Positions 3,475 to 60,200 of a stretch of DNA of 64,000 bases are shown here, piece by piece. Origin of the DNA: an uncultured Candidatus Saccharibacteria bacterium. Its GTDB lineage: Bacteria; Patescibacteriota; Minisyncoccia; Phycocordibacterales; UBA9973. Position 1 is the first letter of the stretch, and each line of letters begins with the position of its first letter. The notes below the pieces were generated by a model. That model saw only the letters and a program-made list of their open reading frames with translations, was not told where the DNA came from and ran no database searches. The stretch lies in NCBI GenBank assembly GCA_964484005.1, contig CAZADR010000002.1:10318-74317 (forward strand), given 5' to 3'. The translations under genes and the position numbers were made by a program.

Positions 3475-3513
3475 TGTGATATTGTAACATATTTTGATAA
3501 TTTAACAGTAAAA

Positions 3514-3622
3514 CCTTGCTTTTTAGGTTTGTTTGTGGTATACTTCCAACAAATAGCAGTTCTCTGACTTTTCAATATTCACAAAACAAACGCAACACAA
3601 AAAACATCCAAAGGAGGATGCC
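3514..3622 (+). promoter_or_regulatory. Conserved promoter plus 5-prime leader, copy A (TTGCTT-N17-TGgTATACT, long UTR ending AAGGAGGATGCCATG)
   Basis: -35 TTGCTT at 3516-3521, 17-bp spacer, extended -10 TGGTATACT at 3536-3544, SD AGGAGG 7 nt before the ATG at 3623. Near-identical copies lie at 32370-32477 and 34445-34562. Confidence 0.6.
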
Positions 3623-4405: not shown

Positions 4406-4428
4406 AACCGAAAGGTTCGAAGATAAAC

Positions 4429-4458
4429 CAGCCCCGCGCAAGCGCGGGGCTTTTTTAT
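4429..4458 (+). terminator. Rho-independent terminator
   Basis: GCCCCGCGC-AAGC-GCGGGGC stem followed by TTTTTTATTT. Confidence 0.7.
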
Positions 4459-4517
4459 TTCTAAATTTCTCATTTTATATATTCTGTGGATAACTTTTTT
4501 TTACTTGTTTTTTTATT

Positions 4518-7370: not shown

Positions 7371-7378
7371 AAGGTTTG
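5988..7378. repeat. 1.39-kb segment identical to 36730..38120 (offset 30742)
   Basis: Protein sequences are identical from GAQAWNWSCGTV to the C-terminal IFIED. The shadow ORFs 6734..6979 and 37476..37721 are identical, and DNA identity ends right after the stop codons (gattagaag). Confidence 0.85.
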
Positions 7379-19842: not shown

Positions 19843-19847
19843 GTTAT

Positions 19848-20163
19848 CCCCCACACCTTTCATTTTATAACTTCAGATCATATTATTTTTTATGTATTAT
19901 TTATATATTCTAAAAAGCCTTAAAGACGAAAAATTATATGTTGGTTCGACCAATGATCTGAAGCGAAGACTTTCGGAACACAACAATGGACTTAATCGTT
20001 CAACAAAAGCAAGGCGTCCATTTGAACTTAGATATTATGAAGCTTGTACTAATGAAAGTGATGCCCGAACTAGAGAATATAACCTCAAGAAAGATGGAAA
20101 AGCACTTGGGCAGCTTAAAAGACGAATTTCCGAAAGTCTTAAATAAAATAAAAGGTGTGGGGG
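19848..20163. mobile_element. Miniature GIY-YIG element: 13-bp terminal inverted repeats CCCCCACACCTTT / AAAGGTGTGGGGG flanked by direct TTAT
   Basis: IRs at 19848-19860 and 20151-20163 enclose the 84-aa GIY-YIG ORF. A near-identical copy lies at 32023-32340. Confidence 0.5.
19892..20146 (+). CDS. Small GIY-YIG nuclease-family protein
   Basis: YLYIL..LYVGSTNDLKRRLSEHN matches the GIY-YIG (URI) domain; 84 aa. Confidence 0.75.
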   Translation: MYYLYILKSLKDEKLYVGSTNDLKRRLSEHNNGLNRSTKARRPFELRYYEACTNESDARTREYNLKKDGKALGQLKRRISESLK

Positions 20164-20181
20164 TTATCCACAGAAGGGTTG

Positions 20182-30793: not shown

Positions 30794-31342
30794 TCAGAAG
30801 TTGTAAACATAAAGTTTTTTATTTTTTTGCCAATTAGGTAATCCTGTTTCTAAAATCTTATCAGGTTTTCTTTTTGAAAATTCAAAATCGCAAGAAACAA
30901 CTCTTGAGCCAACTTTTAATTCTTTTTCAAATTTAGGAAGAAGTTTATCCATAGCTTCTGGAAAAAGATATAAAAAAATATGAGAAGCTTCAGAAATATT
31001 AGTTTTATAAAAATTTCCATATAAGATATAAATATTTTTTGAAGAATTTAACAGTTTTTTTATTTTTGCAAGCATAAATGGAAAAGGGGAAATTTCAACG
31101 CCAATACAGGAGATATTGGGATTTGATTTTAATGCTTCTAAAAGAACTCGCCCGTCTCCACACCCTAGGTCATAGAGAGTACTATCCTCTTTTAATTCTA
31201 GTGCTGAAACAATTTTATTTAAAACCTCTTTTCGTACAGGTACAAATGGTATTAGTGAAAAAAGTGGAGTGATAAGGAAAAGGAGGGCAGAAAGAAAAAT
31301 TAAAAGCAACAGAAAGAGCAATAAGTAAGATAAAATTATCAT
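30794..31342 (-). CDS. Class I SAM-dependent methyltransferase with N-terminal TM anchor
   Basis: Motif I LYDLGCGDGRVLLEA; hydrophobic N-terminus. Confidence 0.6.
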   Translation of the reverse strand: MIILSYLLLFLLLLIFLSALLFLITPLFSLIPFVPVRKEVLNKIVSALELKEDSTLYDLGCGDGRVLLEALKSNPNISCIGVEISPFPFMLAKIKKLLNSSKNIYILYGNFYKTNISEASHIFLYLFPEAMDKLLPKFEKELKVGSRVVSCDFEFSKRKPDKILETGLPNWQKNKKLYVYNF

Positions 31343-31939: not shown

Positions 31940-32022
31940 ATAAATATTTTAAATGCTAAATATGCTTGTTCAAATACAAAAATTACCCCCAAACCCCATA
32001 TTTTGCTGGTTTTAAAGGTTAT

Positions 32023-32340
32023 CCCCCACACCTTTCGTTTTATACCCTTAAATCATATAATGGCTGTTATGTATTACATGTATGTTCTAAAAAGTCTTAA
32101 AGATGAGAAATTATATATTGGTTCTACTGATGATTTAAGGCGAAGACTTTCGGAACACAACAAGGGACTTAATCGTTCAACTAAAGCAAGACGTCCATTT
32201 GAACTTCGTTACTATGAGGCTTGTGCTGACGAACGTGATGCTAGAACAAGGGAATATAATTTAAAAAAAGATGGAAAAGCGCTTGGGCAACTTAAACGAA
32301 GAATCTCCGAAAGTCTTAAATAAAACAAAAGGTGTGGGGG
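32023..32340. mobile_element. Miniature GIY-YIG element (second copy of 19848..20163 type)
   Basis: IR CCCCCACACCTTT at 32023-32035 and AAAGGTGTGGGGG at 32328-32340, both with TTAT immediately outside; encloses a near-identical GIY-YIG ORF. Confidence 0.5.
32060..32323 (+). CDS. Small GIY-YIG nuclease-family protein
   Basis: Product nearly identical to 19892..20146 (MYYMYVLKSLKDEKLYIGSTDDLRRRLSEHN...); the track ORF 31907 start is too early and the real start is 32060 or 32069. Confidence 0.7.
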   Translation: MAVMYYMYVLKSLKDEKLYIGSTDDLRRRLSEHNKGLNRSTKARRPFELRYYEACADERDARTREYNLKKDGKALGQLKRRISESLK

Positions 32341-32369
32341 TTATTCACAGGATGTTCACAGTTCACTTG

Positions 32370-32477
32370 CCTTGCTTTTTGAGTTTATTTGTGGTATACT
32401 TTAGGTGATAGAGTAGCTCTTCGACAACTTTTCACTAAACAAACAATAAACAAAAATGACATTCAAAGGAGGATGCC
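32370..32477 (+). promoter_or_regulatory. Conserved promoter plus 5-prime leader, copy B
   Basis: TTGCTT (32372-32377), 17-bp spacer, TGGTATACT (32392-32400), leader ending AAAGGAGGATGCCATG at the rSAM start. Confidence 0.6.
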
Positions 32478-33575
32478 ATGAAAGTTGTTCCGACCACTGC
32501 TTGGCTAACAGTAAATAGATCCTGCAATTTTCGTTGTAGCTGGTGTTACGCAAAAAGTGATGTATTTGACAACAAAGATACATTAACAATGGAGCTCGCA
32601 TTAAGACTCCTGACAATTATTAAAGAAATGGGAATCAGTCACATTACATTGATTGGTGGTGAGCCCACGCTTTGGAAATATTTAATGGATTTTAATACCA
32701 ATTGTCGTGAAATGGGTATTAAATCCTCGTTGGTAACAAATGCTTATCGTTTTGGTGATGATAATTTTTGGAGTCAGTATATCAAAAACCCGAACGACAA
32801 AGTAAGTGTTTCCCTTAAGGCTTTTGATAATAAGTCAGCAATGGAATTTGTCGGAATAAATAACTTTGAATTAATGACAACTGGAATAAAGAGAGCCATT
32901 TCCGAGTTTAATAGTGGGGTTTCTTTTCTTTGTAATTCATTTGCTAATGGTAACCTAATGTCATTGGCGAGAGTTGCTCACGAATGTGGAGCTCGTAGCA
33001 TAGCTATTAGTCCGTGCACACCATCTTTTTCCAAAGAAGGTGTCGATATTGTGGGGATGCTTGAATCAGGAGAATTAGTTGCAAGTTTCACCTCTGAATA
33101 CGAAGAGATGAGTAATCTTTTTGGAAATAGATTAACTTTTGCAATAAAAACTCCGCTATGTATTTGGCCGCGGAATTTTATTGAAAAGCTGATAACAAGA
33201 AAACAGCTACGAGCAACATGCCAACTCCAACATCGATCAGGGATTATATTTGATCCAAAGGGTCAAGTGTCAGCTTGTAATAGTTTAGCCAATTTTCCGA
33301 TTGGAATAATTGACAAAAACTACAATAATGCTGAATCCCTGATTCAAATTTTGAATAGTGATAATGTGGTTAGAGTTTATAATCACATTAATTCTTATCC
33401 TTCGGAAGTCTGTATTAATTGCCCCGACAACTCAATTTGTCGTGGCGGTTGTCCTTTAATGTGGTCAGTCTATGACCCTAAAAAACATATTCCAGGTTGG
33501 AATATGGGAGAAAAACAGAAAGGAGGTGATAAAAATGGACAAGCTGCTGGAGCTCATCTCGGTAACCGGGATTGA
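32478..33575 (+). CDS. Radical SAM enzyme with C-terminal SPASM domain (candidate peptide maturase)
   Basis: CNFRCSWCY (CX3CX2C) at residues 16-24 and C-terminal CINCPDNSICRGGCP (CX2CX5CX3C SPASM signature); 365 aa. Confidence 0.8.
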   Translation: MKVVPTTAWLTVNRSCNFRCSWCYAKSDVFDNKDTLTMELALRLLTIIKEMGISHITLIGGEPTLWKYLMDFNTNCREMGIKSSLVTNAYRFGDDNFWSQYIKNPNDKVSVSLKAFDNKSAMEFVGINNFELMTTGIKRAISEFNSGVSFLCNSFANGNLMSLARVAHECGARSIAISPCTPSFSKEGVDIVGMLESGELVASFTSEYEEMSNLFGNRLTFAIKTPLCIWPRNFIEKLITRKQLRATCQLQHRSGIIFDPKGQVSACNSLANFPIGIIDKNYNNAESLIQILNSDNVVRVYNHINSYPSEVCINCPDNSICRGGCPLMWSVYDPKKHIPGWNMGEKQKGGDKNGQAAGAHLGNRD

Positions 33576-33687
33576 GAGATCCGACGTGGGTCGCGAGTTG
33601 TTTTTGTATTCAGGAGACTGTGATTGTTCTCCTGATACAGATGACTGCTCAAACCCCAACGACTGCGACTGCGACTGCGCGCCGTAA
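33535..33687 (+). CDS. 50-aa Cys/Asp-rich peptide (candidate RiPP precursor, SCIFF/ranthipeptide-like)
   Basis: ATG at 33535 preceded by AGGAGGTGA; overlaps the rSAM 3-prime end by 41 nt. Product MDKLLELISVTGIERSDVGRELFLYSGDCDCSPDTDDCSNPNDCDCDCAP has 6 Cys, all in the last 23 residues, each adjacent to Asp. GC-rich. Confidence 0.55.
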   Translation: MDKLLELISVTGIERSDVGRELFLYSGDCDCSPDTDDCSNPNDCDCDCAP

Positions 33688-33738
33688 GTAGAATCGTCCC
33701 CCATAACAACTTATCGTTATGGGGGACATTTATATAAA

Positions 33739-34380
33739 ATGAATAAAATAAAATTTTCAATTAAATATTCAAAAGAACTTGAGATTCAACGGGTTTTGTC
33801 TACTAAGAAAAAACTTAAATGGTATTTTGATAATGGTTATAATTTAAACAATTCGGCTTTACCTAAATATATAAGCATAAAAGAATTGGATAAAGCTCCC
33901 AAGGGTGAGCTAATTAAATACATAAATGAAGAATATACTCCAAAGCTTTTTCAATTAAACAAAAAAGAAATCAGTTTTCTTTTACCAGATTACTTGAATA
34001 AATTAGAAGATTATTTTTCTAAAATAAACGTAAAACCAATTTTAAACATAAGAATCATACTCACAAAATACGGAACTGCTGGAAGTTATATTGTTCCAAA
34101 TATTATTGTGATTAATGTTTCAAATTTTTTTAGTATTGGATTAATAAGAAATATTTTACATGAAATAATTCATTTGCATATTCAAGATTTAATAAATAAA
34201 TATGAAATAAAACAATGGGAGAAAGAAATAATCGTCGATAGTGTTTTTGAAAAGTTTTCAGCTTCTCTTTTTAAGAGACAAAATTATCCAATAAATGCAT
34301 TTGAAATTCAAAAAATCTTTAATGAAAGTTATCCAAATATTGAGTTAATTATTTCAAGAATTTTAAAAATAAGACTGTAA
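33739..34380 (+). CDS. Hypothetical protein with HExxH motif (candidate metallopeptidase)
   Basis: NILHEIIHLH contains HEIIH; 213 aa; directly downstream of the peptide ORF. Confidence 0.4.
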   Translation: MNKIKFSIKYSKELEIQRVLSTKKKLKWYFDNGYNLNNSALPKYISIKELDKAPKGELIKYINEEYTPKLFQLNKKEISFLLPDYLNKLEDYFSKINVKPILNIRIILTKYGTAGSYIVPNIIVINVSNFFSIGLIRNILHEIIHLHIQDLINKYEIKQWEKEIIVDSVFEKFSASLFKRQNYPINAFEIQKIFNESYPNIELIISRILKIRL

Positions 34381-34444: not shown

Positions 34445-34562
34445 TTGCTTGACTTGCTTTTTGAGTTTGTTTGTGGTATATTTACCCCAAAGAAGCACAG
34501 TTCTCTGACTTTTCAATATTCACTAAACGAACACAACACAAATTCATCCGAAGGAGGATGCC
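34445..34562 (+). promoter_or_regulatory. Conserved promoter plus 5-prime leader, copy C
   Basis: TTGCTT (34454-34459), 17-bp spacer, TGGTATATT (34474-34482); CAGTTCTCTGACTTTTCAATATTCAC..AAC.CAACAC block shared with copy A; ends GAAGGAGGATGCCATG. Confidence 0.6.
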
Positions 34563-35255
34563 ATGCGCAAATTCGTAATGTATTTTCTTGTCGCAGTATT
34601 TCTGTGCTCGGCATTCTCTCTGAGTGCCGACAGACGACGTCCCGCGCGTAGCGGAATGCAACCGACATTTCTCACCAAGCAGACTTCTCTGTCTGTGGTG
34701 GGACCCAACGAGAAAGGGGAATACAGTGCGCCTTTTGTGGCCTGGTTCCCGGTTTCAAATGGAACAACGGTAAGTAGTTATACCGTGGATGTTAATGGTA
34801 ACAAAACTCCAATTGTGGGCGCGTCTTTCACTGTCACCGCGGAAAATGCCGATCACGGTTGGGCAATGCAACTCTGGGGACCTTTTACTGGCGGATATGC
34901 GCCAATTCCCACGAGTAGTGGTATTGTTGCTTTCCGCGTGGAATTCACGGGAAATTTCCAGACTTACAGTGTCAACGCAAGGGTTCCGGATGGAACACGT
35001 GCTACTGCTGTGGTAGATGTCTACCCCGACGGGAAGCTCTTCCTCAAGCAGTCTTACGCTGTTCTTCCGGTCGCTAGCCTCAACGGTCGAGGCCATCCTG
35101 TGGTAAATGGTTGGATCACTCCGACTCAGTATTATACTGGATCGGATGTGGTTGTTGCTGTTTGCTCCGGATTTCCGGACTCGCAGTGTCAGACCCAGGT
35201 GGTCGACATTCCGGCTCCTCAGACCAACGCAGGAAAAACGTTTAGTTTCGAATAA
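34563..35255 (+). CDS. Secreted hypothetical protein, GC-rich, paralog of 3623..4405
   Basis: Signal peptide MRKFVMYFLVAVFLCSAFSLSA followed by DRRRPAR; C-terminal GFPDSQCQTQVVDIPAP matches GYPDAECSTVQVDIPDT of the paralog. Confidence 0.65.
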   Translation: MRKFVMYFLVAVFLCSAFSLSADRRRPARSGMQPTFLTKQTSLSVVGPNEKGEYSAPFVAWFPVSNGTTVSSYTVDVNGNKTPIVGASFTVTAENADHGWAMQLWGPFTGGYAPIPTSSGIVAFRVEFTGNFQTYSVNARVPDGTRATAVVDVYPDGKLFLKQSYAVLPVASLNGRGHPVVNGWITPTQYYTGSDVVVAVCSGFPDSQCQTQVVDIPAPQTNAGKTFSFE

Positions 35256-35290
35256 GAAGTCAAACTCGAATCGGTAAAACGATTCATAAC

Positions 35291-35320
35291 TTGCCCCGCA
35301 CTTGTGCGGGGCTTTTTTAT
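35291..35320 (+). terminator. Rho-independent terminator
   Basis: GCCCCGCA-CTTG-TGCGGGGC followed by TTTTTTATTT; homologous to the 4429-4458 terminator. Confidence 0.7.
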
Positions 35321-35385
35321 TTGTAAACATTTTGTGTTGATAACTTTCTTCACTTACTTTTTATTTTGCTGTATAATTAAAATCT

Positions 35386-38112
35386 ATGAAATCTATTATA
35401 AAAGGCAGATTTTTATTATTAATTTTTGTTTTATCATTTTTATCATTATTTGGTTTCTCTAGTCAGGCTCAGGCATTGACCATGGCACCAGATTTTAGTG
35501 TGACTTCTTTTACTTTATCTGCAGATCAAAACACTATTACTTTTACAGCAGATGGAAATTCTGGATATTTATATTCTAGTTGTGGTGCTGATGTTTTAGA
35601 GCCTCATTATGAAGGTGGTCCTTATACTTATACTCCTTATGCTATGTCTAGCGGAACTATTTCTGCAGGTTCTGTCTCAGGGACAATATCTTCTGGGGAA
35701 ATTGCAAAGTTAACTAATGGACAAACGGGCACACCTTGCGATGACCCAGCCAGGTCTTCCCCAACAGGCAATGTTGTTCCCGGTACTCCAGGAACTTTTA
35801 CAGTAACAAACAAAACCCTTAATGTTTCTAGTTTGGCCAATGGTTCATACACTCTTTCTGTTTCACTTTGTGCGACTGCCGGAGTATGTAGTGTTGCTAC
35901 TAGGGCTTTTACTATAAATAATAGAGTAACTAGTTTTAATGTTACAGCAACTGCCGGTACTGGTGGTTCCGTTTCTTCTCCTTGTTCTGTGGCGAGCGGA
36001 AATACTTCCGCAACATGTAGTAATATTAATGCTTTGTCTGGGTATTCTTTAACTCAAGCTGTAGAATTTACTCCTTCTAATTGTGCCACTGGGGGCTCTT
36101 TTTCTGGAAATGCATATACTACAGGAAATGTTAATGTTAATAATTGTAATGTAAAATTTAACTTTGCTCCTGTAGGCACAGTTTCCGGCTATCATGACGG
36201 AGCTTCAGGCACAGTTGCTTCTACTTCCTGTAACGCAAATGGCTGGGCAGCTTTTTCAACACTACCAGGAACAGACTTAACAATAGGAATAATAAGTGAT
36301 GGGGTAGCAGTGTACTATGGTCCTGCTGGGGAGTATAGAGGAGACCTGACAGGACAGTGCACAAGTGGAACTTGTGCATATAATGTGGACTTGAGTAGTC
36401 GTATTTCTTCTGGAGTAAATCACTCAATCACTGTTCAAGCTCAAAATCCTAATACTTCGGCTTGGGTGACTCTAGGTGGAAGTCCAAAGACATTAAATTG
36501 TACAGCAGTACCTCCACCACCTTGTGGAAATGGTGCCAATAATCCTCCAACTTGTACTACCTGTACTTCACCCCTTGTTTGGAACGGTAGCTCGTGTGTA
36601 GCACCTTCAACCGATGCTTGTGGTACTTATAGCGGTATTACCCCTAGACTCACTGAACCAACCACAAATCCTACTGCATGTAACCCAGGCACATATGCAA
36701 ACTCTCCAGCGGACACCGCTACTCTCGGTGCTCAAGCTTGGAATTGGTCTTGTGGCACGGTCACTTCCTGTTCTGCTCCCAAATATGGCTGTAGAGTAAC
36801 GACTGACTCAAATTATAGTCTTCCTCAATATGGACCAACTGGACCAAACAACAATTATGGTTGCGCTGGTACTTGTGCAAACGGGGGAACAGATTATTCT
36901 ACCTGTACACCTCCAGTTGGTATGTCTGGAACCTTGACCACTCCTAGCTGTACGATTGCTTCCGGGTCCAGCACTTGTACCACGACTGTCTCTTGGACAG
37001 TAACTAATCCTGTAGTAGTCGGCGGCTCTTCAGTCACTTCTTCATATCCTAGTGCTGGTACAGTCGTCGCTCCTCCAGTCAGTACTGGAACTGCAGATTC
37101 AGGTACAAAAACAGGTGTAACTATTCCATATAGTTCCAGGACTTTCTATCTTTACAACAACAATGTTCAATTAAATACAGGCACAGCTAACGCTACCTGC
37201 GCTACAGGTTCAGCCTGGAACGGAACCATCTGTTATACAGCACCCGCTCTTCCTGATTTGACAGCCGCTTCTACTACTCCTTCTACTGCTGTAAAAAATG
37301 AAGCCAAAACTTTTTCTTCAATCGTTACAAACATTGGAGCTGCAGATACTGGTGCATCTTTCTCAAACTTCTTTCAAGTGTGTAATGTAGGAGGAGGATG
37401 TGCAACTCCAACAGATCTAGCTCCTACTACCATGACAGCTTTGGCTGGTGGAGCGACCGGTACGGCCACCAAAGATTACACCTTTACCTCTGTCGGAACA
37501 TTTTCTGTTCGAGCTTGTGCAGACAAGACAAACTCTGCTTCTCTTGGTGTAATTAACGAAGGGACCATGGAAGGCAACAACTGTGGAAATTGGGCTAATG
37601 TTACTGTTTCCGATACCCCAACTCCACCTTCCAATGAAGCCCCCGTCATCACCATCTGGGCTACTCCAACTTCTGGTACCGTGAATATTGTCAAACCTAC
37701 TATTCTCTGGAGTGTCGACAATGATCCGACATCTTGTGCGGCAAGTGAAGACTGGTTAGGTAGTCGAAATTACAGTGGAGCTCAAACTCAAGAACCAGCC
37801 TTAAATCAAATTAAAACTTACCGTTACACATTAATCTGCTCCAATGCTTATGGTAGTGATGAAGCTACTGCTACGGTCGCAGTGTCTGGAACTGCCTCTG
37901 GAGTAAGTATTAGTGTAAATCCTACCTCCATCTATGCTGGAGATTCAGCCACTCTCACTTGGTCAGGCGCAGGAGCTTGTACTTATAACTTTGATACTGG
38001 TTCTAATATTGTAACTCCAAATACGACCACTACTTACACTCTTACTTGTGATGGTGTATCTTCTAGTGCTACATTGATAGTGAAGAAGAAACCGATATTT
38101 ATTGAGGATTAG
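35386..38112 (+). CDS. Large secreted Cys/Thr/Ser/Gly-rich surface protein (paralog of 4518..7370)
   Basis: Signal peptide MKSIIKGRFLLLIFVLSFLSLFGFSSQAQA, divergent N-terminal ~450 aa, C-terminal ~460 aa identical to the paralog; extended -10 TGCTGTATAAT upstream. Confidence 0.7.
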   Translation: MKSIIKGRFLLLIFVLSFLSLFGFSSQAQALTMAPDFSVTSFTLSADQNTITFTADGNSGYLYSSCGADVLEPHYEGGPYTYTPYAMSSGTISAGSVSGTISSGEIAKLTNGQTGTPCDDPARSSPTGNVVPGTPGTFTVTNKTLNVSSLANGSYTLSVSLCATAGVCSVATRAFTINNRVTSFNVTATAGTGGSVSSPCSVASGNTSATCSNINALSGYSLTQAVEFTPSNCATGGSFSGNAYTTGNVNVNNCNVKFNFAPVGTVSGYHDGASGTVASTSCNANGWAAFSTLPGTDLTIGIISDGVAVYYGPAGEYRGDLTGQCTSGTCAYNVDLSSRISSGVNHSITVQAQNPNTSAWVTLGGSPKTLNCTAVPPPPCGNGANNPPTCTTCTSPLVWNGSSCVAPSTDACGTYSGITPRLTEPTTNPTACNPGTYANSPADTATLGAQAWNWSCGTVTSCSAPKYGCRVTTDSNYSLPQYGPTGPNNNYGCAGTCANGGTDYSTCTPPVGMSGTLTTPSCTIASGSSTCTTTVSWTVTNPVVVGGSSVTSSYPSAGTVVAPPVSTGTADSGTKTGVTIPYSSRTFYLYNNNVQLNTGTANATCATGSAWNGTICYTAPALPDLTAASTTPSTAVKNEAKTFSSIVTNIGAADTGASFSNFFQVCNVGGGCATPTDLAPTTMTALAGGATGTATKDYTFTSVGTFSVRACADKTNSASLGVINEGTMEGNNCGNWANVTVSDTPTPPSNEAPVITIWATPTSGTVNIVKPTILWSVDNDPTSCAASEDWLGSRNYSGAQTQEPALNQIKTYRYTLICSNAYGSDEATATVAVSGTASGVSISVNPTSIYAGDSATLTWSGAGACTYNFDTGSNIVTPNTTTTYTLTCDGVSSSATLIVKKKPIFIED

Positions 38113-38120
38113 AAGTAAAT
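36730..38120. repeat. 1.39-kb segment identical to 5988..7378
   Basis: See 5988..7378; identity stops immediately after the shared stop codon. Confidence 0.85.
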
Positions 38121-38190
38121 AAAAAAAGTTTTTACAAAAAATCCCCACCACAATTAACATTGGTGGGGATTTTTTGGTATACTATATGTA

Positions 38191-39951
38191 ATGCAAATAA
38201 ACGAAGAACAGCTAAAGAAGTCTATTTTAGAATCTGGTCTCGTCTCTAAAACAGATTTTGAAGAAGCGCTAAAAAAAGCTGAAGAAAAAAAACAAAAAGT
38301 TGGAAATATTTTAATTTCTGAAGGAAAAATATCAGAAACAGACCTAAAACAAATGGAAGCTTTTGTTTTGGGTATTCCTTTCATTAATCTAAATAATGAA
38401 AAGATAGATGCCGCTGTTCTTTCATTGATTCCTGAGCCAATCGCCCGAAATGACAATATTGTCGCTTACAAAAAGACAGACAACAGTCTAGAAGTGGCAA
38501 TGCTCGATGTGGATGATTTGCCAGTTATTGATTTTATAAAAAAACGTTCTGGTTTAAAAATTTTACCTCGTTTGACAGATACTTCTTCCATCAAATCTGT
38601 GCTCGTCCAATATCGCCAGAGCCTAAAGGCGGAATTTCAAGATATCATTAAAAAAGAATCCGATTCGTTGGGGGATTCAATCGACGAAGAGGGAGATAAG
38701 CCTCACGAAAAATCGGAAAATGAATTGAAAGAAATGGCAGAAGATTTGCCAGTGGTAAAGATAGTAGATTCTCTTGTCTTTCATGCTATTTTACAAAATG
38801 CTTCAGACATCCATATCGAGCCAGGGGAGAAAAACCTCACCGTGCGTTACCGTATCGACGGTATCTTGCACGATGCGATGGTGCTCGATAAAAATGCTGG
38901 TCTTGGTATCACTGCGCGTATAAAAGTTTTGACCAATTTAAAACTTGATGAAAAAAGATTGCCCCAAGATGGTAGATTTAAAATAGAACAAAATGGAGAA
39001 AAGATTTCTTTTCGTGTTTCCACCTTGCCTACTTTCTTTGGAGAAAAAACAGTTATCAGAATCTTGAAAGAAAATTCTCACGGTTTTTCTTTGGAGACCC
39101 TTGGTTTTCACGGAGAAGGACTTGAGCTTATACATAACTCAATGAAATTAAAAACAGGTATGGTGCTTGCTACTGGTCCGACTGGAAGTGGAAAGACAAC
39201 GACCCTTTATACCATGTTAGATATTTTAAATAGACCTGAAGTAAATATTTCTACCGTTGAAGATCCGATAGAATATCAAATGCCGAGAGTAAACCAGACT
39301 CAAGTTAAACCAGAAATTGGATTAACTTTTGCCAATGGACTTCGTTCTCTCCTCCGACAAGATCCAGATATCGTGATGGTGGGGGAGATTCGTGACGGAG
39401 AGACGGCAGGTCTCGCCATTAATGCTTCTCTCACAGGGCACTTGGTATTGTCTACTATCCATACCAACTCAGCCGCAGGTGCCATCCCTAGACTTATAGA
39501 TATGGGAGTAGAGCCTTTTCTTATTACCGCTACCGTCAAGACAATCATTGCCCAGAGGCTCGTTCGTCGTCTTACTGAAAAAAAAGAAAAATATTTTTTA
39601 TCATCAGCTGAGATAAAAAATCTTGGAAAAATTGTAGACATAGACAGAGTGCTTACTTTCTTAAAAACAGAAAAAATAATATCAGATGACAGTACAATTG
39701 AAAAAATTCCGTTTTATAAAGCGATAAAAAATGGTGAATTTGAAGATGGGTATTCCGGTCGCATAGGTATGCATGAAGTATTAAAGGTAACATCATCTAT
39801 TAGAGAAATGATTTTAAAAGGAAGTTCTCAGGACGAGGTAGAGGCACAGGCTAAAAAAGAAGGGATGCTCACCATGCTCGAAGATGGAGTATTTCAATCC
39901 GTTTTAGGGGTGACGACACTAGAAGAAGTGTTTCGTGTGGTTTCTGAATAA
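38191..39951 (+). CDS. pilB: Type IV pilus assembly ATPase PilB / GspE family
   Basis: GspE N-terminal domain, Walker A GPTGSGKTTTLYTML, Asp box and His box regions; 586 aa. Confidence 0.85.
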   Translation: MQINEEQLKKSILESGLVSKTDFEEALKKAEEKKQKVGNILISEGKISETDLKQMEAFVLGIPFINLNNEKIDAAVLSLIPEPIARNDNIVAYKKTDNSLEVAMLDVDDLPVIDFIKKRSGLKILPRLTDTSSIKSVLVQYRQSLKAEFQDIIKKESDSLGDSIDEEGDKPHEKSENELKEMAEDLPVVKIVDSLVFHAILQNASDIHIEPGEKNLTVRYRIDGILHDAMVLDKNAGLGITARIKVLTNLKLDEKRLPQDGRFKIEQNGEKISFRVSTLPTFFGEKTVIRILKENSHGFSLETLGFHGEGLELIHNSMKLKTGMVLATGPTGSGKTTTLYTMLDILNRPEVNISTVEDPIEYQMPRVNQTQVKPEIGLTFANGLRSLLRQDPDIVMVGEIRDGETAGLAINASLTGHLVLSTIHTNSAAGAIPRLIDMGVEPFLITATVKTIIAQRLVRRLTEKKEKYFLSSAEIKNLGKIVDIDRVLTFLKTEKIISDDSTIEKIPFYKAIKNGEFEDGYSGRIGMHEVLKVTSSIREMILKGSSQDEVEAQAKKEGMLTMLEDGVFQSVLGVTTLEEVFRVVSE

Positions 39952-39958
39952 AATTAAT

Positions 39959-41179
39959 ATGCTTTTTTTATACAAAGCAAAATCAAAAACAGGAGAGATA
40001 ACTGAGGGGGAGCAAGAATCCCTTGATCGTTTTTCTTTAAATAAAGATCTCAAATCTCGTGGATTTACTCCTTTGTCGATTGTTGAAAAAAATAAAACTT
40101 TTGGTGGTAATTTTTCTATAAATTTTTCTAATATTTTTTCAAAAGTAAAGATTTCTGAACAAATTATTTTTACTAAAAATTTGAGCGGAATGATAAAAGC
40201 AGGTCTTTCCCTCAGTCGCGCTTTGTCAGTTTTGAGAAAACAAACAAAAAACCAGAAACTAAATGATATATTTTTATCTATTTCAAATGACATAAATGCA
40301 GGGGCGACTTTTTCTTCTGCTTTAGCAAAGTTTCCCGAAGTTTTTTCCAAATTATTTATATCGATGGTCAGAGCTGGTGAAGAGTCTGGAAATCTAGCTG
40401 GTTCCTTGTCTGATATAGCTTTAAACTTAGAAAAAGCAAACTCTTTAACAAAAAAAATAAAAGGAGCACTCATCTATCCAGGGGTCATAATGTCTGCTAT
40501 GGTGGTCATCGGAGTTTTGATGTTTGCTTTTGTGGTTCCTACCTTGGCAAATACTTTCAAAGAGCTCGGTGTCACACTGCCTCTCTCTACCAGAGCCCTT
40601 ATCTTTTTCGGTAACTTTTTTTCCAATCATCTCATTTTGACTTTTGCGATTATCTTATCTATTGCCTTTGGTTTCTTTATGCTTTTTCGTTCAAAATTTA
40701 TGGCAAAATATATCGATTTTGTACTTATGAAAATTCCAGTTATCGGAACCATGGCGAGAGAGTTAAATACTGCTCGTACAGCGAGAACCATCTCATCTCT
40801 TTTGTTGTCTGGGGTTTCTATTACTCGTGCAGTGGAAATCACCGAGGATGTCGTACAAAATATTTACTATAAAAAAGTTTTAAAGGAAGCTAGAATAGCG
40901 ATAGAAAAAGGAGCTCCGTTTTCTGAAGCTTTTGAGAAAAATACCAATCTTTACCCAGTGATGATGTCTGAGATGGTTCAGGTTGGAGAGGAGACAGGGA
41001 AACTTTCCGACATGTTGCTCCAAATTGCTCTTTTTTACGAAGAGGAAATTGAAAATAAAACAAGAAATCTTTCGACCATTATCGAACCAATATTGATGAT
41101 ATTTATTGGTTCAGGTGTTGGGTTTTTTGCCATCTCCATGATTTCTCCACTTTATTCAATATTAGGAAGCATTGGTTAA
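39959..41179 (+). CDS. pilC: Type IV pilus platform protein PilC / GspF family
   Basis: Two GspF repeats and polytopic membrane segments; the start is taken at the ATG at 39959, just after the pilB stop. Confidence 0.8.
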   Translation: MLFLYKAKSKTGEITEGEQESLDRFSLNKDLKSRGFTPLSIVEKNKTFGGNFSINFSNIFSKVKISEQIIFTKNLSGMIKAGLSLSRALSVLRKQTKNQKLNDIFLSISNDINAGATFSSALAKFPEVFSKLFISMVRAGEESGNLAGSLSDIALNLEKANSLTKKIKGALIYPGVIMSAMVVIGVLMFAFVVPTLANTFKELGVTLPLSTRALIFFGNFFSNHLILTFAIILSIAFGFFMLFRSKFMAKYIDFVLMKIPVIGTMARELNTARTARTISSLLLSGVSITRAVEITEDVVQNIYYKKVLKEARIAIEKGAPFSEAFEKNTNLYPVMMSEMVQVGEETGKLSDMLLQIALFYEEEIENKTRNLSTIIEPILMIFIGSGVGFFAISMISPLYSILGSIG

Positions 41180-41181
41180 TA

Positions 41182-41649
41182 ATGAAAAATTTTTATCAAA
41201 AAGGAATAACTATTTTTGAATTATTGATAGTTTTTGCTATTTTAGGAGCCATCTTAGCTGTTACTATTCCACAATTTTCAAAAATTAGAGAATTACAAGT
41301 TGTAAAATCAGCCGTGCAAGAGGTTTTGTCATCTATTGATAGGGCTAGGTCAGACTCTCTTTCTTCCTTAGATTCTTCCGAATATGGTGTGCATTTAGAG
41401 TCCGATAAGATTATAATTTTTAAAGGAATGATTTTTTCTGAAGGAGCAGGCGATAATGAAATCATAAGTATCACTTCTCCCGCGACAGTCTCCAATGTTA
41501 CTTTTGGTGGGGTCAGCGCTTCTTCTGGAGATGTTTATTTCAATCGTCTTTCGGGTTCACCTAGCAAGACAGGAACTATCACTATTTCTTCTCCAAATTA
41601 TTCAAAAATAATAACAATCTTAGCTACGGGTGTCGCAAGTGTGAATTAA
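41182..41649 (+). CDS. Prepilin-type (type IV pilin / pseudopilin) protein
   Basis: N-terminus MKNFYQKG|ITIFELLIVFAIL has a class III signal with Gly at -1 and Glu at +5. Confidence 0.7.
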   Translation: MKNFYQKGITIFELLIVFAILGAILAVTIPQFSKIRELQVVKSAVQEVLSSIDRARSDSLSSLDSSEYGVHLESDKIIIFKGMIFSEGAGDNEIISITSPATVSNVTFGGVSASSGDVYFNRLSGSPSKTGTITISSPNYSKIITILATGVASVN

Positions 41650-41652
41650 ATT

Positions 41653-42189
41653 ATGAGATTTTTTCTAAAAAATAAAAAAAGTGGCTTTACCCCCACACCT
41701 TTTGGAAAAAAAGGTGTGAGCCTACAAAGTAGGCGGGGGTTTATGGCAGTTGAGATATTGGTGGCTGTGTCAATCATCACAGCTTCTGTTTTAGCCATGA
41801 TGGCAGTCTCTCAAAAATCAGTTTTTATTTCTAGGCAGTCTTTTCATTCTGCACAAGCAGCATTCTTGTTAGAAGAGGGAGCAGAGGCAATCAGAATATT
41901 TAGAGATGATGCATGGACCAATATTTCTAGTCTTACTCCATCCACAGATTATTATCCAACTTTTTCTGGTGGGACATGGGTTTTGAGTAGTACACCAAAC
42001 ACAGTTGGTATTTTTACTCGTACTGTCAGTATCGCCAGCGTAAATCGCGACGATACCTCAAAAGATATTTCAGAAGTGGGCACAGATGATATAGACACTA
42101 AGCTGATCACTGTTACAGTATCTTGGCCGGAGGGAGGGGTGACGGTCACTAAAACATTACAGTTTTACATAATGAATATTTTCTCATAA
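41653..42189 (+). CDS. Prepilin-type protein with unusually long leader
   Basis: ...SRRG|FMAVEILVAVSII: G at -1, E at +5, preceded by about 28 residues; the real start may be a downstream codon. Confidence 0.55.
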   Translation: MRFFLKNKKSGFTPTPFGKKGVSLQSRRGFMAVEILVAVSIITASVLAMMAVSQKSVFISRQSFHSAQAAFLLEEGAEAIRIFRDDAWTNISSLTPSTDYYPTFSGGTWVLSSTPNTVGIFTRTVSIASVNRDDTSKDISEVGTDDIDTKLITVTVSWPEGGVTVTKTLQFYIMNIFS

Positions 42190-42193
42190 GAAT

Positions 42194-42700
42194 ATGAAAA
42201 AATTTTTTAAAAACAAAAAAAGAAAACAGGGCTACGCCATCTTAGAACTTCTTTTTTATATTACACTTTTTTCTATCCTTTCATTTGTATTAATCAATGC
42301 AATGATAATAATGTCTAAATCTTTTAAACAAACTGTTATCCAGACCGAGTTGATGCAGACGGGAAATCTTCTAGAAAGAATAAGTAGAGAGATAAGGGGG
42401 GCTTATGGAATAAACACTATCAGTGTAAATAGTTTGATATTGAATACCAAAGATGATGCTGATGTAAATAAAACAGTACAGTTTTTAATTTCAGGTTCAG
42501 ATTTGCAATTTTTAGAAAATGGAGTTTTGGTGGGCAACTTAAATACGCCAGATTTGCAGGTTATCGCACTTTCTTTTACGGATATAACCACCGCACAGGG
42601 CAAAGCAATCAAGGTATTTTTAACTGTAAAATCTGTAAATGATACTTCGGGTCGCACAGAAGATTTCTATAACACAGTTGTATTGCGGGGTGGTTATTAA
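42194..42700 (+). CDS. Prepilin-type protein
   Basis: MKKFFKNKKRKQG|YAILELLFYITLF has a prepilin cleavage motif with Glu at +5. Confidence 0.65.
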   Translation: MKKFFKNKKRKQGYAILELLFYITLFSILSFVLINAMIIMSKSFKQTVIQTELMQTGNLLERISREIRGAYGINTISVNSLILNTKDDADVNKTVQFLISGSDLQFLENGVLVGNLNTPDLQVIALSFTDITTAQGKAIKVFLTVKSVNDTSGRTEDFYNTVVLRGGY

Positions 42701-42714
42701 ATTATATTTTATAA

Positions 42715-43977
42715 ATGAAAAAACAAAAAGAAAGAAAAATAAATAAACAAAAAGGAGCAGCTATGTTGATATCAGTAGTATTTTTTCTTTTTATTTCTCT
42801 GGCGATAGTTTCTGGACTCGTTTCTCCGGCGGTGAGAGAATTTAAAATTTCGAGTGACTTGATAAGGTCTCGCCAAAGCTTGTTTTTATCTGAGTCAGGA
42901 ATAGAGGATGCATATTTTAGATTAAAAACAGCGAAACCAATCGCTTCTATTACTTATTTAACCCTTGGAGGAAATACTGCCACTACTACCATAACTGACT
43001 CTGGTTATAATGAAAAAACAATCAATACATTAGGAGATGTTTCTTCTAGGCAAAGAGTAAATAAAGTAGTGCTTTCTACTGGTACAGGAGTTTCTTTTAG
43101 TTATGGGGTGCAGGCGGGACTCGGGGGTTTTACTATTGGTAATGCGACAATAAATGGAAATGTTTATTCAAATGGAACAATAGAAGGGGCGAATGGCGCG
43201 ATCATAACTGGCTCTGCTTTTTCTGCAGGAGCTTCTGGGCTTATAGATAATATCGATGTCGGCCAGTCGGGAACAGGAGATGCCAGAGCCCACGTTGTTA
43301 CAAATTCTAACATTACAGGCAATCTATATTGTCAAAGTGGAACAGGGAACAATAAAGCATGTGACACATCACAAGCAGATCCTGCCACCACCAGTATGCC
43401 GATTACGGAAGCCATGTTTGATAAATGGAAAGCCGACGCAGAATTGGGTGGAATTATAACTGGAGATTTGACCATATCAACACCTTCGATTCTCGGTCCT
43501 AAAAAAATTACAGGCAATTTAGCCATAAATAGTGACGTTGTTATTTCTGGTACTCTTTATGTAGTAGGAAACATCACTACAAACAATGGAGCCCAGGTTT
43601 CTTTGGATAGTTCTTATGGCCCTACAGGCGGTATCATAGTGACCGATGGGCGTGTCACTCTTTCTAATAATGTAAATTTTGCTGGTTCTGGAAGTGAGGG
43701 TTCTTATGTTCTGTTAGCTACGACGAGCCCTTGTCCATCTGGATGCTCTGGTTTAAATGCTTTGGAGATTTTAAATAATGTGGGGGCCATCCTAGTAAGT
43801 GCGCAATACGGCACAGTGCACTTGAACAACAATGTTGCCTTAAATGAAGTGGTAGGTAATAGAATAATTGTAGATAACAGTGCTGAAGTTACCTATGTTT
43901 CTGGTTTGGCTAGCACTCTTTTTACCTCTGGGCCTTCTGGTGGATGGAGCATAAAGTCTTGGAAAGAGGTCAAATGA
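42715..43977 (+). CDS. Membrane-anchored Gly/Thr/Asn-rich protein, probable pilus-associated component
   Basis: N-terminal TM helix then repetitive G/T/N/S-rich sequence suggestive of beta-helix; last gene of the pilus cluster. Confidence 0.4.
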   Translation: MKKQKERKINKQKGAAMLISVVFFLFISLAIVSGLVSPAVREFKISSDLIRSRQSLFLSESGIEDAYFRLKTAKPIASITYLTLGGNTATTTITDSGYNEKTINTLGDVSSRQRVNKVVLSTGTGVSFSYGVQAGLGGFTIGNATINGNVYSNGTIEGANGAIITGSAFSAGASGLIDNIDVGQSGTGDARAHVVTNSNITGNLYCQSGTGNNKACDTSQADPATTSMPITEAMFDKWKADAELGGIITGDLTISTPSILGPKKITGNLAINSDVVISGTLYVVGNITTNNGAQVSLDSSYGPTGGIIVTDGRVTLSNNVNFAGSGSEGSYVLLATTSPCPSGCSGLNALEILNNVGAILVSAQYGTVHLNNNVALNEVVGNRIIVDNSAEVTYVSGLASTLFTSGPSGGWSIKSWKEVK

Positions 43978-57266: not shown

Positions 57267-60200
57267 ATGGAAGAAAAGGATAATAACAAATCAGAAGCAG
57301 CTCTCCGAGAAGAGCGTATTTTAGACTTTTGGCGCGAAAATAAAACTTTTGAGAAGACCTTAACGAAAGAGGCACCTGGTGGGCATTATGTTTTTTATGA
57401 TGGTCCGCCTTTTGCTACAGGACAAATTCACTATGGGCATATTTTAGGTAGTACGGTAAAAGATGTAATAGGAAGATATAAAACCATGCAAGGTTTTTAT
57501 GTACCTCGAAAATGGGGTTGGGATTGTCATGGCTTACCAATTGAAAATATTGTTGAAAAAGAATTAGGTATTGCTGGGCATGTAGAGATTGAAAAATACG
57601 GTATTGATAAATTTGTGGAATATGCACGCAGTAAGGTTCTGCAATATGACAAGGACTGGGAGAAGGGAATTGAGCGTATCGGACGCTGGGTGGATTTTCG
57701 TGGCCAGTATAAAACGATGGACAACACTTTTATCGAGTCTGTTTGGTGGGCATTGTCGGAGTTAAACAAAAAGAAACTTATCTATGAGGGGGTGAGAGTT
57801 CTCGCTTATTGTGCTCGTTGTGAGACACCGATTGCTAATTCTGAAATCGCGATGGACAACAGTTACAAAGATATTTCTGATATTTCTGTTTATGTAAAAT
57901 TTGAGTTAGAAGGAGAACCTGGTACTTATTTGCTTGCTTGGACGACGACCCCTTGGACATTACCAGGCAATACAGCCATCGCCATCAATCAAGATATTGT
58001 TTATATAAAAGTAAAAGTAGCAGAAGATGTTTTAATTCTTGCCAAAGAAACGGTGCAAAATGTTTTGAAAGATAAAGAGTATTTGGTGTTGGGCGAAATA
58101 AAAGGAGCAGACTTAATTGGCAAAACATATAAACCGGTTTTCCCATATTATAAAAATTCTGAATCTGCCAAGAATGAAAATATTTGGAAAGTTTGGCACG
58201 CAGACTTTGTCACCCTAGAAAAGGGAACAGGTATTGCTCACGAAGCTCCTGCTTTTGGTGAAGATGATATGAACTTGGCAAAACAAAATAATATTCCTTG
58301 GATAATCCATGTAGACGAAACAGGAAAATTTAAGTCTGAGATTGTGGATTTTGCTGGCATGCAGGTAAAACCAAAAGGTATTGAAAAAGATGACCACCAG
58401 AAAGCAGACATAGAAGTTATAAAATATCTGGCAAAAAATAATTTACTTTTTGCTAAAGAAAAGATAATTCACTCATATCCACACTGTATGCGCTGTGATA
58501 CGCCGATTATATATTATGCATTACCTTCTTATTTTATAAATATTCAGGAAGTAAAAAAAGATATAATCAAAAAATCACATAGTATAAATTGGATACCTTC
58601 ACACTTAAAAGAGGGACGGTTTAAAAATATAGTAGAGAATGCACCGGATTGGAACATATCTAGGAATCGTTATTGGGCGAGCCCTCTTCCAATTTGGAAA
58701 TGTGAAAATTGTAAAGAAAAAACTTTTGTTAATTCTTTAGAAGATTTAAAGTCAAAAGTAAAAAATTCTGGCAATCAGTATTTTGTTGCTCGTCATGGAC
58801 AAGCTGACAGTAATGCGGGAATGTATATTGATTCAAAATCAAAACAATCAAACAAATTAACCGAAAAAGGGAAAGAAGAGGTAAGAGAAAGTGTGCAAAA
58901 AATAAAAGGTACAAATTTTGATTATGTTTTCTGTTCACCAATGCTTCGCACCAAAGAAACTGCAAAAATAATAGCTGAAAATTTAAAGATGGATATAGGT
59001 CAAATTGTTTTTGATGAACGCCTGGTTGAATTTCAGGTGGGAGACTTAGATGGAAAAAGTATAGAAGAATACTTTAAATATATCGAAACTATTCCAGATT
59101 ATTTTTCAACTCCACTCCCTGGAGGGGAGAGTAGGCTTGCTGTACACAAGCGTATGGGAGATTTTATTTATGAGTTGGAAAAGAAATATTCTGATAAAAA
59201 AATATTAATAATCTCTCACGGAGATCCGATATTAGCACTCTTTTTGTTGAGCGAAGGGTATACAAAAGAAAAAATAAAAGAACAGGAAAAAAACTTCCCA
59301 TATTTTAAAACAGGAGAAATAAGAGAGCTTTCTTTTGTGCCTCTTCCACACAATAAAGACTATGAGTTGGATTTACATCGTCCATATATTGATGACATAC
59401 CACTTGTGTGCGAGTGTGGCAGTCACTTGGTGCGTATACCTGAAGTATTAGATTGCTGGTTTGAATCTGGCTCCATGCCTTTTGCTCAAGATCATTTTCC
59501 TTTTGAAAATAAGGAGTGGCAAAAGAATAATTTTCCTGCAGGTTTTGTGGCTGAATATATCGCTCAGACTAGAACTTGGTTTTATTATACCCATGTTGTA
59601 TCTACAATTCTTTTCGATTACACCCCATTCAAAAATATAGTAACCACTGGTACCTTGAGAGCGGAAGATGGAGAAAAAATGTCTAAATCCAAACAGAATT
59701 ATCCTGATCCTTGGAAATTTATAGATAAATATGGGGCAGACGCCTTGCGCCTTTACTTGATGTCTTCTACTTTAATGAAAGGGGAAGATTCAAATTTTTC
59801 AGAGAAAGCTGTGCAGGATATCGCTAGTAAGATTATTGGGCGTTTGTTTAATGTGTTTGCCTTTTATGAATTATACAGAGATAAAGAAATAGAGACAGAT
59901 GAAGTGCCAAAAAGTGAAAATATTCTCGACAAATGGATTTTATTGCGTTTTTATAAAACTCTTGAAGAAACTTCTAAAGGTATGGAGTTATACGATATGG
60001 TAGAAGCTACCCGTCCAATCGATGCATTGGTCAACGATCTTTCCACTTGGTATCTTCGCCGTTCTCGTGAACGAATCAAAGATGGAGACGCAGAGGCAAA
60101 ACAAACTTTGTATTTTATTTTAAAAACCTTAGCAAAAATGCTTGCTCCATTTGCACCATTTTCCGCGGAAGATATATGGCTAAAATTAAAAAATGAAAAT

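Follow-up and report, generated by a model that had tools for sequence, protein, structure and literature searches.

How can two copies of one gene pair in the same genome be identical base for base over their last 1386 nucleotides (nt), when most of the sequence in front of this tract has no detectable similarity at the DNA level? The question is raised by a 64-kb window (the whole stretch of DNA analysed here, 64,000 nt of contig CAZADR010000002.1) from a bacterium assigned to the Patescibacteria, also called Candidate Phyla Radiation (CPR). The window contains two cassettes, A (3515-7373) and C (34453-38115), of the same layout, in which a gene for a small protein is followed by a gene for a large one. 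A type IV pilus cluster opens with cassette C; cassette A lies 31 kb away, flanked by a gene pair (a SET-domain gene and a gene for a protein of 209 amino acids, aa) and by a GNAT gene. An earlier note on this DNA had suggested either cassette exchange by homologous recombination or strong diversifying selection on a cell-surface system. We consider it likely that the pattern as a whole is best explained by recent gene conversion between the two loci, in which conserved blocks would serve as anchors, the variable part would be exchanged, the C-terminal half of the large protein would stay uniform and the other, exposed half would contact a partner.

An identical tract at the 3′ end of both cassettes

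The segments of the large genes compared, all on the + strand, are:
35386-36604: variable N-terminal part of large gene C (predicted signal peptide, modules S1-alpha, S2-alpha' and S3-alpha), which at the DNA level resembles cassette A in the signal peptide only
36605-36729: junction zone of about 125 nt, ~78% identity to 5863-5987; start of the Cys-rich module, kept across close relatives
36730-38115: putative gene-conversion tract, copy C, encoding the rest of the Cys-rich module, R1, a putative CARDB domain, T1, T2 and the tail KKKPIFIED
4539-7370: large gene A, 943 aa (modules S1-gamma, S2-beta, S3-beta and a putative FN3 domain, then the common C-terminal half)
5988-7373: putative gene-conversion tract, copy A, delimited by base-by-base comparison and independent contig ends

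The two copies of the tract differ by 0 mismatches over 1386 nt, both in self-BLASTN and in the base-by-base comparison. The identity covers the stop codon and 3 further nt and then ends; from 4 nt past the stop codon, and also 5′ of the junction zone, it is 36-42%, the level of unrelated sequences. The tract begins within the Cys-rich module, the best conserved one of the family, and stops where homology ends. Two further blocks are similar between the cassettes: the leader blocks (3515-3711 vs 34453-34654; 76.6% identity by self-BLASTN) and the terminator/inner-promoter/signal-peptide blocks (4431-4606 vs 35293-35453; 74%). Divergence along the cassettes is not uniform, with an identical 3′ end, 5′ blocks at 74-77% and an interior without detectable DNA similarity. 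The earlier note's description of a leader, terminator, inner promoter and 3′ 1.39 kb common to A and C was thereby borne out, and the terminator and inner promoter lie where it had placed them.

Contigs 100% identical to the window are found in assemblies of other samples, made with MEGAHIT (k141), SPAdes (k55) and Logan (k31). Ten of these contigs, five per side and from at least four samples and three assemblers, end exactly 30, 55 or 141 nt into the tract. On the C side the ends are at 36759 (Logan, k=31), 36784 (SPAdes, k=55) and 36870 (MEGAHIT, k=141); on the A side they are at 6017 and 6128. A contig ends exactly k nt into the tract because the reads hold two different left flanks joining one common sequence (de Bruijn branching), and since contigs of three assemblers stop in this way on both sides, the repeat is no assembly artefact. 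The pairing of left and right flanks across it is supported by synteny in relatives.

Other contigs stop at the promoter or start of the large genes (L020-L022 near 35369-35392 and L028-L029 near 4528-4530). Also, contig L030 (1568-1861; its aligned part corresponds to window 2904-4469) enters, past the terminator of small gene A, unrelated sequence with an open reading frame (ORF) on the minus strand. L030 and these promoter-edge ends may stem from structural variation within the population at the 5′ limits of the large genes, or else from a chimeric contig.

Substitution rates along the cassettes

The ratio of nonsynonymous to synonymous substitution rates (dN/dS, omega) along the alignments, a check proposed by the earlier note, was estimated by the Nei-Gojobori method in 60-codon windows. 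Over the 462 codons of the tract, dS = 0. In the diverged parts dS varies from about 0.7 to infinity; the small genes are saturated, and the proportion of nonsynonymous differences (pN) is 0.23 for the large genes overall. Concerning the paralogs of a relative (contigs L001 and L002), dS is 0.16-0.8 in their common parts, and positional counterparts are at about 1-2 or saturated. No 60-codon window with omega > 1 was found by this method, synonymous sites being saturated where the sequences differ strongly; the highest finite value, 1.00, comes from one 54-codon window of the L001/L002 pair (alignment columns 180-240) which adjoins saturated windows. Gene-wide, dN/dS is 0.10-0.33 for the cassette genes vs 0.04-0.16 for their neighbours. 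Since synonymous sites are saturated and no window lies above omega 1, the diverged middle is old or replaced sequence. The strong diversifying selection of the earlier note found no backing in these values, and the differences are whole-module replacements with sharp edges.

Mosaic structure of the large genes in relatives

Six large proteins, among them the C copy (P0001), the A copy (P0003) and the proteins of L001 (P0002) and L002 (P0005), were aligned and grouped in 50-column windows. In columns 1-200, P0001 groups with P0002 and P0005 (54-86% identity), apart from P0003 (18-35%). Columns 300-400 sort the proteins by locus (P0001/P0002 70-84%, P0003/P0005 86-96%, cross pairs 18-37%), and columns 700-850 sort them by genome (P0001/P0003 100%, P0002/P0005 82-88%, between genomes 25-55%). 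In the C-terminal part, both window copies have the putative CARDB module and both copies of the relative have a second "MSGTL...FYLYNN" repeat. These three incompatible groupings point to repeated gene conversion and concerted evolution.

A module-by-module BLASTP comparison covered ten cassettes (window A and C, L001, L002, L003, L008, L009, L011, L013 and L014) and gave the following orders:
L013: alpha-alpha'-beta
L014: gamma-beta-alpha
L003: delta-beta-alpha + FN3
More distant relatives: CARDB or S3-alpha at other positions

The modules of the N-terminal part of large gene C recur, differently combined, in the L001, L003, L013 and L014 genes; related strains thus have genes that are chimeric or of a type swapped between loci, as both this table and the three groupings show. 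The DNA of L001 and that of L002 are alike in the cassette blocks alone, at 85% identity over the 3′ 1436 nt, 80% over the first 590 nt (with the inner promoter) and 69% over the leader. The 3′ halves, which have this 85% identity, share much less with their positional counterparts in the window. Since these halves are alike within the sample and unlike their counterparts, the C-terminal half appears to evolve in concert within each genome. The other proposal of the earlier note, exchange by homologous recombination, accords with a 1386-nt tract of zero differences between loci that are otherwise saturated, and with the incompatible groupings in relatives.

Proposed mechanism and alternative explanations

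The identical tract would be the product of a recent gene conversion, in which one locus took over sequence of the other by non-reciprocal homologous recombination. Homology anchors would be provided by the leader with the signal peptide, by the terminator with the inner promoter and the signal peptide, and by the Cys-rich module. They would allow the body of the small gene and the N-terminal part of the large gene to be replaced independently, and the C-terminal half with its invariant KKPxFIE(D/N) tail would be kept uniform. This constant half would probably be the cell-proximal or attachment part, and the variable half would probably be exposed, touching the partner cell or substrate alongside the pilus.

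Several points count against this explanation. Gene conversion is deduced from the comparison of sequences, and the search for further copies covered a 64-kb part of the genome. The contigs L001 and L002 derive from a single metagenome sample and are about equally distant from the window, and their origin from the same genome is presumed. Genes for ComEC, ComM and RecJ are present in the window, and some of the between-strain mosaicism could stem from allelic exchange with DNA acquired from relatives instead of exchange between the loci. On the protein side, the model of the large protein is of low confidence (predicted local distance difference test, pLDDT, 59); the small proteins have an arginine cluster right after the predicted cleavage site, which is unusual for an exported protein, and their topology is uncertain; and the function is read from fold, export signals and gene neighbourhood.

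Of the alternatives, the one that survives best, although we regard it as unlikely, is that the mosaicism comes mainly from uptake of related strains' DNA and allelic replacement, inter-locus exchange being rare or one-off. It would fit the type IV pili and the ComEC, ComM and RecJ proteins encoded here, as well as the different positions of CARDB, S3-alpha and FN3 in more distant relatives. However, 100% identity within one genome needs at least one inter-locus event. In the relative, too, the two loci resemble each other in the 3′ half and in the first 590 nt more closely than either resembles its positional counterpart, and small-protein type 2 is found at the pilus locus in L003.

Somewhat less plausible again is diversifying selection by point mutation on an exposed middle, with purifying selection on the ends and no recombination. 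The cassette proteins are indeed less conserved than their neighbours (54-67% vs 92-96% identity), and their dN/dS is the higher one, as given above. Selection on amino acids, however, cannot yield 462 codons at dS = 0 adjoining saturated sequence, and the identity runs 3 nt past the stop codon. Moreover, the differences consist of modules that are present, absent or reordered as wholes, with sharp edges, omega is above 1 in none of the windows, and dS has reached saturation in every region of strong sequence difference.

Programmed variation, either from an expression locus with silent donor cassettes (in the style of pilE/pilS or vlsE) or by a diversity-generating retroelement, seems very improbable to us. 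Conserved ends with a variable interior resemble such systems, and the part of the genome inspected is 64 kb, but both cassettes consist of complete genes, each with its own predicted promoters, start codons, signal peptides and terminators. The repeat is perfect, without adenine-specific changes, and self-BLASTN gave no other related repeat. The earlier note had proposed a search for additional silent cassettes; run on the 64-kb window, TBLASTN with all four proteins (E<=10, i.e. even at E=10) and BLASTN gave no further cassette fragment, which argues against silent donors. Pfam analysis of a subset of the window ORFs gave no reverse transcriptase, which argues against a retroelement.

A repeat collapsed, duplicated or mis-threaded during assembly is scarcely credible: the contig is metagenome-derived (103,760 nt), ordinary short reads cannot bridge a perfect repeat of 1.39 kb and the pairing of flanks is the one chosen by the assembler, but on either side the ten contigs, which come from other samples and three assemblers, branch at exactly one base, relatives have full-length large genes at both loci with the same pairing (pilB after the nusA-side copy, GNAT after the SET-side copy), and one relative has the same pattern at 85% identity, a level that is easy for an assembler.

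Domains of the large proteins

The large proteins (908-943 aa) are chains of beta-sandwich, immunoglobulin (Ig)-like modules from a common module pool. Their N-terminal halves (408 and 443 aa compared), which the earlier note held to differ completely, have no DNA similarity beyond the signal peptide; at the protein level there is a marginal match (24% over 151 aa, E=0.036). The AlphaFold modelling that had been proposed gave a chain of beta-sandwich domains, broken by the unmodelled Cys-rich module, with low confidence (pLDDT 59). Foldseek matches of this model are Ig-array adhesins, S-layer proteins and similar. CARDB (PF07705) is matched by the C-terminal half alone with 22.7 bits against a cut-off of 22.7 (E=1.2e-4), the full-length proteins score 21.2-21.3 bits, and homologs of the large proteins carry precomputed PF07705 matches. 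The FN3 match in the A copy is sub-threshold in Pfam. A PDB sequence search with profiles of both families, large and small, gave nothing useful.

The Cys-rich module (PRLTEPTTNPxACNPGxYANSPADT...AQAWNWSCG) has 84-93% identity among close cassettes and is present in many other CPR surface proteins; being so conserved and widespread, it is a natural homology anchor. These other proteins are 600-1600 aa long and are labelled Nomurabacteria, Minisyncoccia or Paceibacterota.

Concerning the C-terminus, the tail K-(K/R/Q)-(K/Q)-P-x-F-I-E-(D/N/E) is found in all large proteins with a complete C-terminus (10/10), and the NCBIfam search gave no model for it. The K-K-P-x-F-I-E-(D/N/E) tail could be a C-terminal sorting or attachment signal. 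Its sites in the window are 38082-38112 and 7340-7370 (proteins P0001-P0025 compared), and no transmembrane segment follows it. Among giant CPR surface proteins unrelated to these, many have the ending x-(F/Y)-x-E-(N/Q) or NEG/KEQ.

Domains and types of the small proteins

The small proteins form one family of two tandem beta-sandwiches. Those of A and C align end to end (26% identity, E=2e-11), and this, together with their membership of one family, makes them homologous throughout; the earlier description of them as recognisably homologous only at their ends stands in so far as the best-kept blocks are at the ends. AlphaFold gave a model with pLDDT 81 and a predicted template modelling score (pTM) of 0.73, which consists of an N-terminal helix, a disordered linker with D-R-R-R-P-x-R-x-G and two beta-sandwiches. 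The family has 42 members in a profile search of 1.84 billion representative proteins, and Pfam and NCBIfam searches of the small proteins gave no match.

Two types can be distinguished. Type 1 comprises the C copy of the window, L001, L013, L008, L009 and L011, and type 2 the A copy, L002, L014 and L003. Small protein A has 62% identity to the small protein of L002 and 60% to that of L014. Type 2 lies beside pilB in L003; the subtype is therefore not bound to the locus. The subtype (1/2) matches the S2 type (alpha'/beta) of the large protein in 7/7 close cassettes; S1, which lies between the small gene and S2 on the DNA, breaks this match in L002. The co-occurrence could be co-adaptation or mere linkage, in a small sample of non-independent lineages.

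Each of the four cassette proteins starts with a basic n-region, which is followed by 14-18 hydrophobic residues and an AxA-type site (ANA↓M, AQA↓L, MNA↓D, LSA↓D). The hydrophobic stretches were modelled by AlphaFold as a helix (residues 2-21 and 2-22), with the disordered linker after the N-terminal helix. Small and large proteins are thus predicted to carry N-terminal export signals. No prepilin (class III) signal of the type G↓F/M-x-x-x-E was found in either, and the predicted signal peptides are ordinary ones with AxA-type sites. An invariant D-R-R-R-P-x-R-x-G stands directly after the predicted signal-peptidase site of the small proteins (34626-34652 and 3686-3712; residues about 22-30).

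Regulatory DNA of the cassettes

The remaining features of the two cassettes, all on the + strand, are:
34454-34482: promoter of small gene C (TTGCTT, 17-nt spacer, TATATT, upstream TG), kept in cassette A, in the radical S-adenosylmethionine (SAM) operon described below and in 7 related loci
34483-34562: CA-rich 5′ untranslated region (5′UTR) of small gene C, with the ribosome-binding site AAGGAGGATGCC directly 5′ of the ATG; conserved across relatives
34563-35255: small gene C, type 1, coding for 230 aa with a predicted signal peptide, the DRRRP motif and a pair of Ig-like beta-sandwiches
35293-35318: intrinsic terminator between small and large gene C (8-bp stem with 7 G-C pairs, then a T run), conserved in cassette A
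35349-35377: promoter of large gene C (TTCACT, 17-nt spacer, TATAAT, TGC in front), 8 nt 5′ of the ATG, without Shine-Dalgarno sequence
3516-3622: promoter and 5′UTR of small gene A, by sequence comparison with the other leader copies
3623-4405: small gene A, 260 aa, type 2
4431-4456: terminator of small gene A
4518-4529: extended -10 element of large gene A (TTGTTGTATAAT)

Large gene C is an ORF of 908 aa (35386-38112). For large gene A, the TTG at 4518 given as start by the ORF finder was rejected, as it lies inside the -10 region and the ATG at 4539 matches the database protein P0003. The terminator consensus of both cassettes is GCCCCGCxxxxGxGCGGGGC followed by a T run, and the inner promoters read TGTTGTATAAT and TGCTGTATAAT.

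A TATAAT/TATACT box 7-9 nt before the ATG, without Shine-Dalgarno sequence, is seen at the large genes and at pilB (35372-35388, 4524-4541 and 38178-38193). A -10 box so near the start codon, with no Shine-Dalgarno sequence, suggests leaderless mRNAs for these genes. The small genes, unlike the large genes and pilB, have a long leader (about 80 nt in small gene C) and a strong ribosome-binding site. For the conserved 5′UTR, RNAalifold gave just a 5-bp hairpin at the ribosome-binding site, without useful covariation, and there was no Rfam match; the idea of a riboswitch or structured leader was therefore dropped. The sequence TTATYCACAG 5′ of the promoters (DnaA-box-like, palindromic in relatives) was also set aside, as it is not enriched in the window (9 found vs 9.75 expected).

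A third copy of this promoter, leader and ribosome-binding site lies at 32371-32480, where it precedes a radical-SAM operon. By chance, 0.07 copies would be expected in the window, against the three seen. This third copy is probably the "cassette B" missing from the A/C naming of the earlier note. The features of this operon are:
32371-34380, + strand: third promoter/leader copy and radical-SAM operon of three genes, resembling those for ribosomally synthesised and post-translationally modified peptides
32478-33575, + strand: radical-SAM/SPASM maturase, with a weak full-length match to PapB-type ranthipeptide maturases
33536-33687, + strand: Cys/Asp-rich 50-aa peptide MDKLLELISVTGIERSDVGRELFLYSGDCDCSPDTDDCSNPNDCDCDCAP, candidate precursor; an uncalled gene with its own Shine-Dalgarno sequence
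33696-33727: strong terminator after the 50-aa peptide gene
33739-34380, + strand: 213-aa HExxH protein (HEIIH motif)

The operon is absent from the interval between nusA and the cassette in the relative L001. A small gene of the GIY-YIG nuclease family and its flank are repeated in the window (19843-20173 vs 32018-32350, 85% identity), and one copy lies directly 5′ of the radical-SAM leader. Based on the gene calls for L015, the nusA-to-cassette interval also holds a HicA/HicB-like pair and a second GIY-YIG gene.

Gene neighbourhood and distribution in relatives

Downstream of cassette C, two features lie on the + strand:
38143-38183: hairpin TCCCCACCA...TGGTGGGGA with a T run, then the pilB promoter (TATACT), from sequence reading and a promoter scan
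38191-43977: type IV pilus genes (pilB, pilC, three pilin-like genes of 155, 178 and 168 aa and a 420-aa gene), with Pfam matches T2SSE, T2SSF and N_methyl

The pilin-like genes are at 41182-42700, and prepilin motifs G↓(F/I/Y)xxxE are seen in their translations. The order nusA (divergent), small gene, large gene, pilB, pilC and pilins is found in L001, L003, L008, L009/L010, L011 and L013; contigs L003, L011 and L013 stop short of nusA upstream. The pair therefore stands directly 5′ of pilB-pilC-pilins in the window and in 6/6 relatives whose contigs reach there, a firmer link to the pilus than the adjacency noted earlier. The other position (SET-domain gene, 209-aa membrane protein, then small gene, large gene and GNAT/NUDIX) is occupied in L002 and L014. 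Both cassette loci are old and present in relatives. A role in host or partner-cell interaction, as the earlier note had considered, may be proposed from the Ig-like folds, from the predicted export signals and from the place before pilB, which relatives have kept.

The database relatives carry the same three labels as the proteins with the Cys-rich module, and a metagenome-assembled genome of the same species bears the label "Ca. Saccharibacteria". A scan of GTDB genomes matched only a fragmented contig of the same species and three distant module-bearing proteins. Housekeeping neighbours have 80-96% protein identity between the window and L001 (PilB, NusA and H+-pyrophosphatase 92-96%), vs 54-67% for cassette proteins between relatives; the cassette genes have thus evolved faster.

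The housekeeping genes of the window include metK, ahcY, lexA, RNase Y, clpP, trigger factor, H+-pyrophosphatase and nusA; comM, comEC and recJ are related to competence. GC content is low (about 30-37%) across most of the window and reaches 41-46% in the cassette regions (3001-7000 and 35001-38000), which probably reflects their Thr/Ser/Gly/Ala/Cys-rich composition. A tRNA scan of the window found none, and an Rfam scan of the whole window returned zero families. A 182-aa methyltransferase gene (window 30794-31342; L002 4954-5502; L014 7223-7840) lies 5′ of the SET/GNAT-type cassette in L002 and L014 and 5′ of the pilus-type cassette in the window, which indicates, from gene positions, a rearrangement of the regions upstream of the cassettes. 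Also, the isoleucyl-tRNA synthetase-like gene (57267-60773, 1168 aa) has a His_Phos_1 (histidine-phosphatase) domain inserted at residues 506-669.

Relation to known systems and significance

Gene conversion between surface-protein paralogs is a well-known evolutionary mechanism. Here it is seen in an unannotated, lineage-restricted gene pair, an uncharacterised protein family of an uncultivated bacterium. By analogy, the closest system in mechanism is babA/babB/babC of Helicobacter pylori, in which full-length paralogs at fixed loci have near-identical termini and a divergent middle, and intragenomic gene conversion yields chimeric genes, with locus combinations varying by strain (PMC4552749). 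The cassettes likewise have two full-length paralogs at distinct loci, both positions being conserved between genomes; a 5′ block with the signal peptide is conserved, the 3′ half is identical, and relatives carry chimeras. However, Bab proteins are beta-barrel outer-membrane proteins (Hop) of a diderm, whereas those described here are strings of Ig-like domains in a CPR bacterium; Pfam and NCBIfam searches gave no match to the Hop beta-barrel, and the models are beta-sandwich arrays. The unit here has two genes, with promoter, leader and terminator belonging to the conserved frame, no dinucleotide-repeat phase switch was seen, and the conversion is deduced from sequence. Since the cassette proteins are unrelated to Bab proteins, the system is bab-like in its working and not a member of that family.

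The pilE/pilS system of Neisseria is similar in that a surface protein is varied by non-reciprocal homologous recombination on conserved blocks, and in its connection to type IV pili. It differs in that its donors are silent, promoterless and partial and its target is the pilin, whereas both copies here are complete and have no prepilin signal. The modular giant surface proteins of Patescibacteria (arrays of CARDB, InlB B-repeat / Flg_new_2 and FN3) have in common with the large proteins the Cys-rich module, CARDB (a borderline match here), repeat modules and a short acidic C-terminal tail. They are, however, single genes in scattered contexts, and here a small-plus-large pair of fixed composition is duplicated and heads a pilus cluster.

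A more far-reaching reading, which we offer as speculative, is that the pair, as a module specific to Patescibacteria, serves partner recognition together with the type IV pilus. Distal Ig-like modules, possibly with matched small-protein types, would be recombined between two slots, the common anchoring half would carry an undescribed KKPxFIE(D/N)-COOH tail signal, and the pair would form one regulon with the Cys/Asp-rich peptide modified by the radical-SAM enzyme.

Outside a few cultivated Saccharibacteria, in which type IV pili are important (PMC9894109, PMC12206443), little is known of how ultrasmall CPR bacteria find partner cells and keep hold of them. The locus is a concrete candidate for partner contact in CPR bacteria, as a conserved, fast-evolving, predicted-exported two-protein unit which, in one uncultivated lineage, heads the pilus cluster, and there is clear evidence that recombination between its two copies reshapes it. 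It is also a worked example for those who assemble and annotate such genomes, of how a perfect intragenomic repeat fragments every short-read assembly of the organism at the same base.

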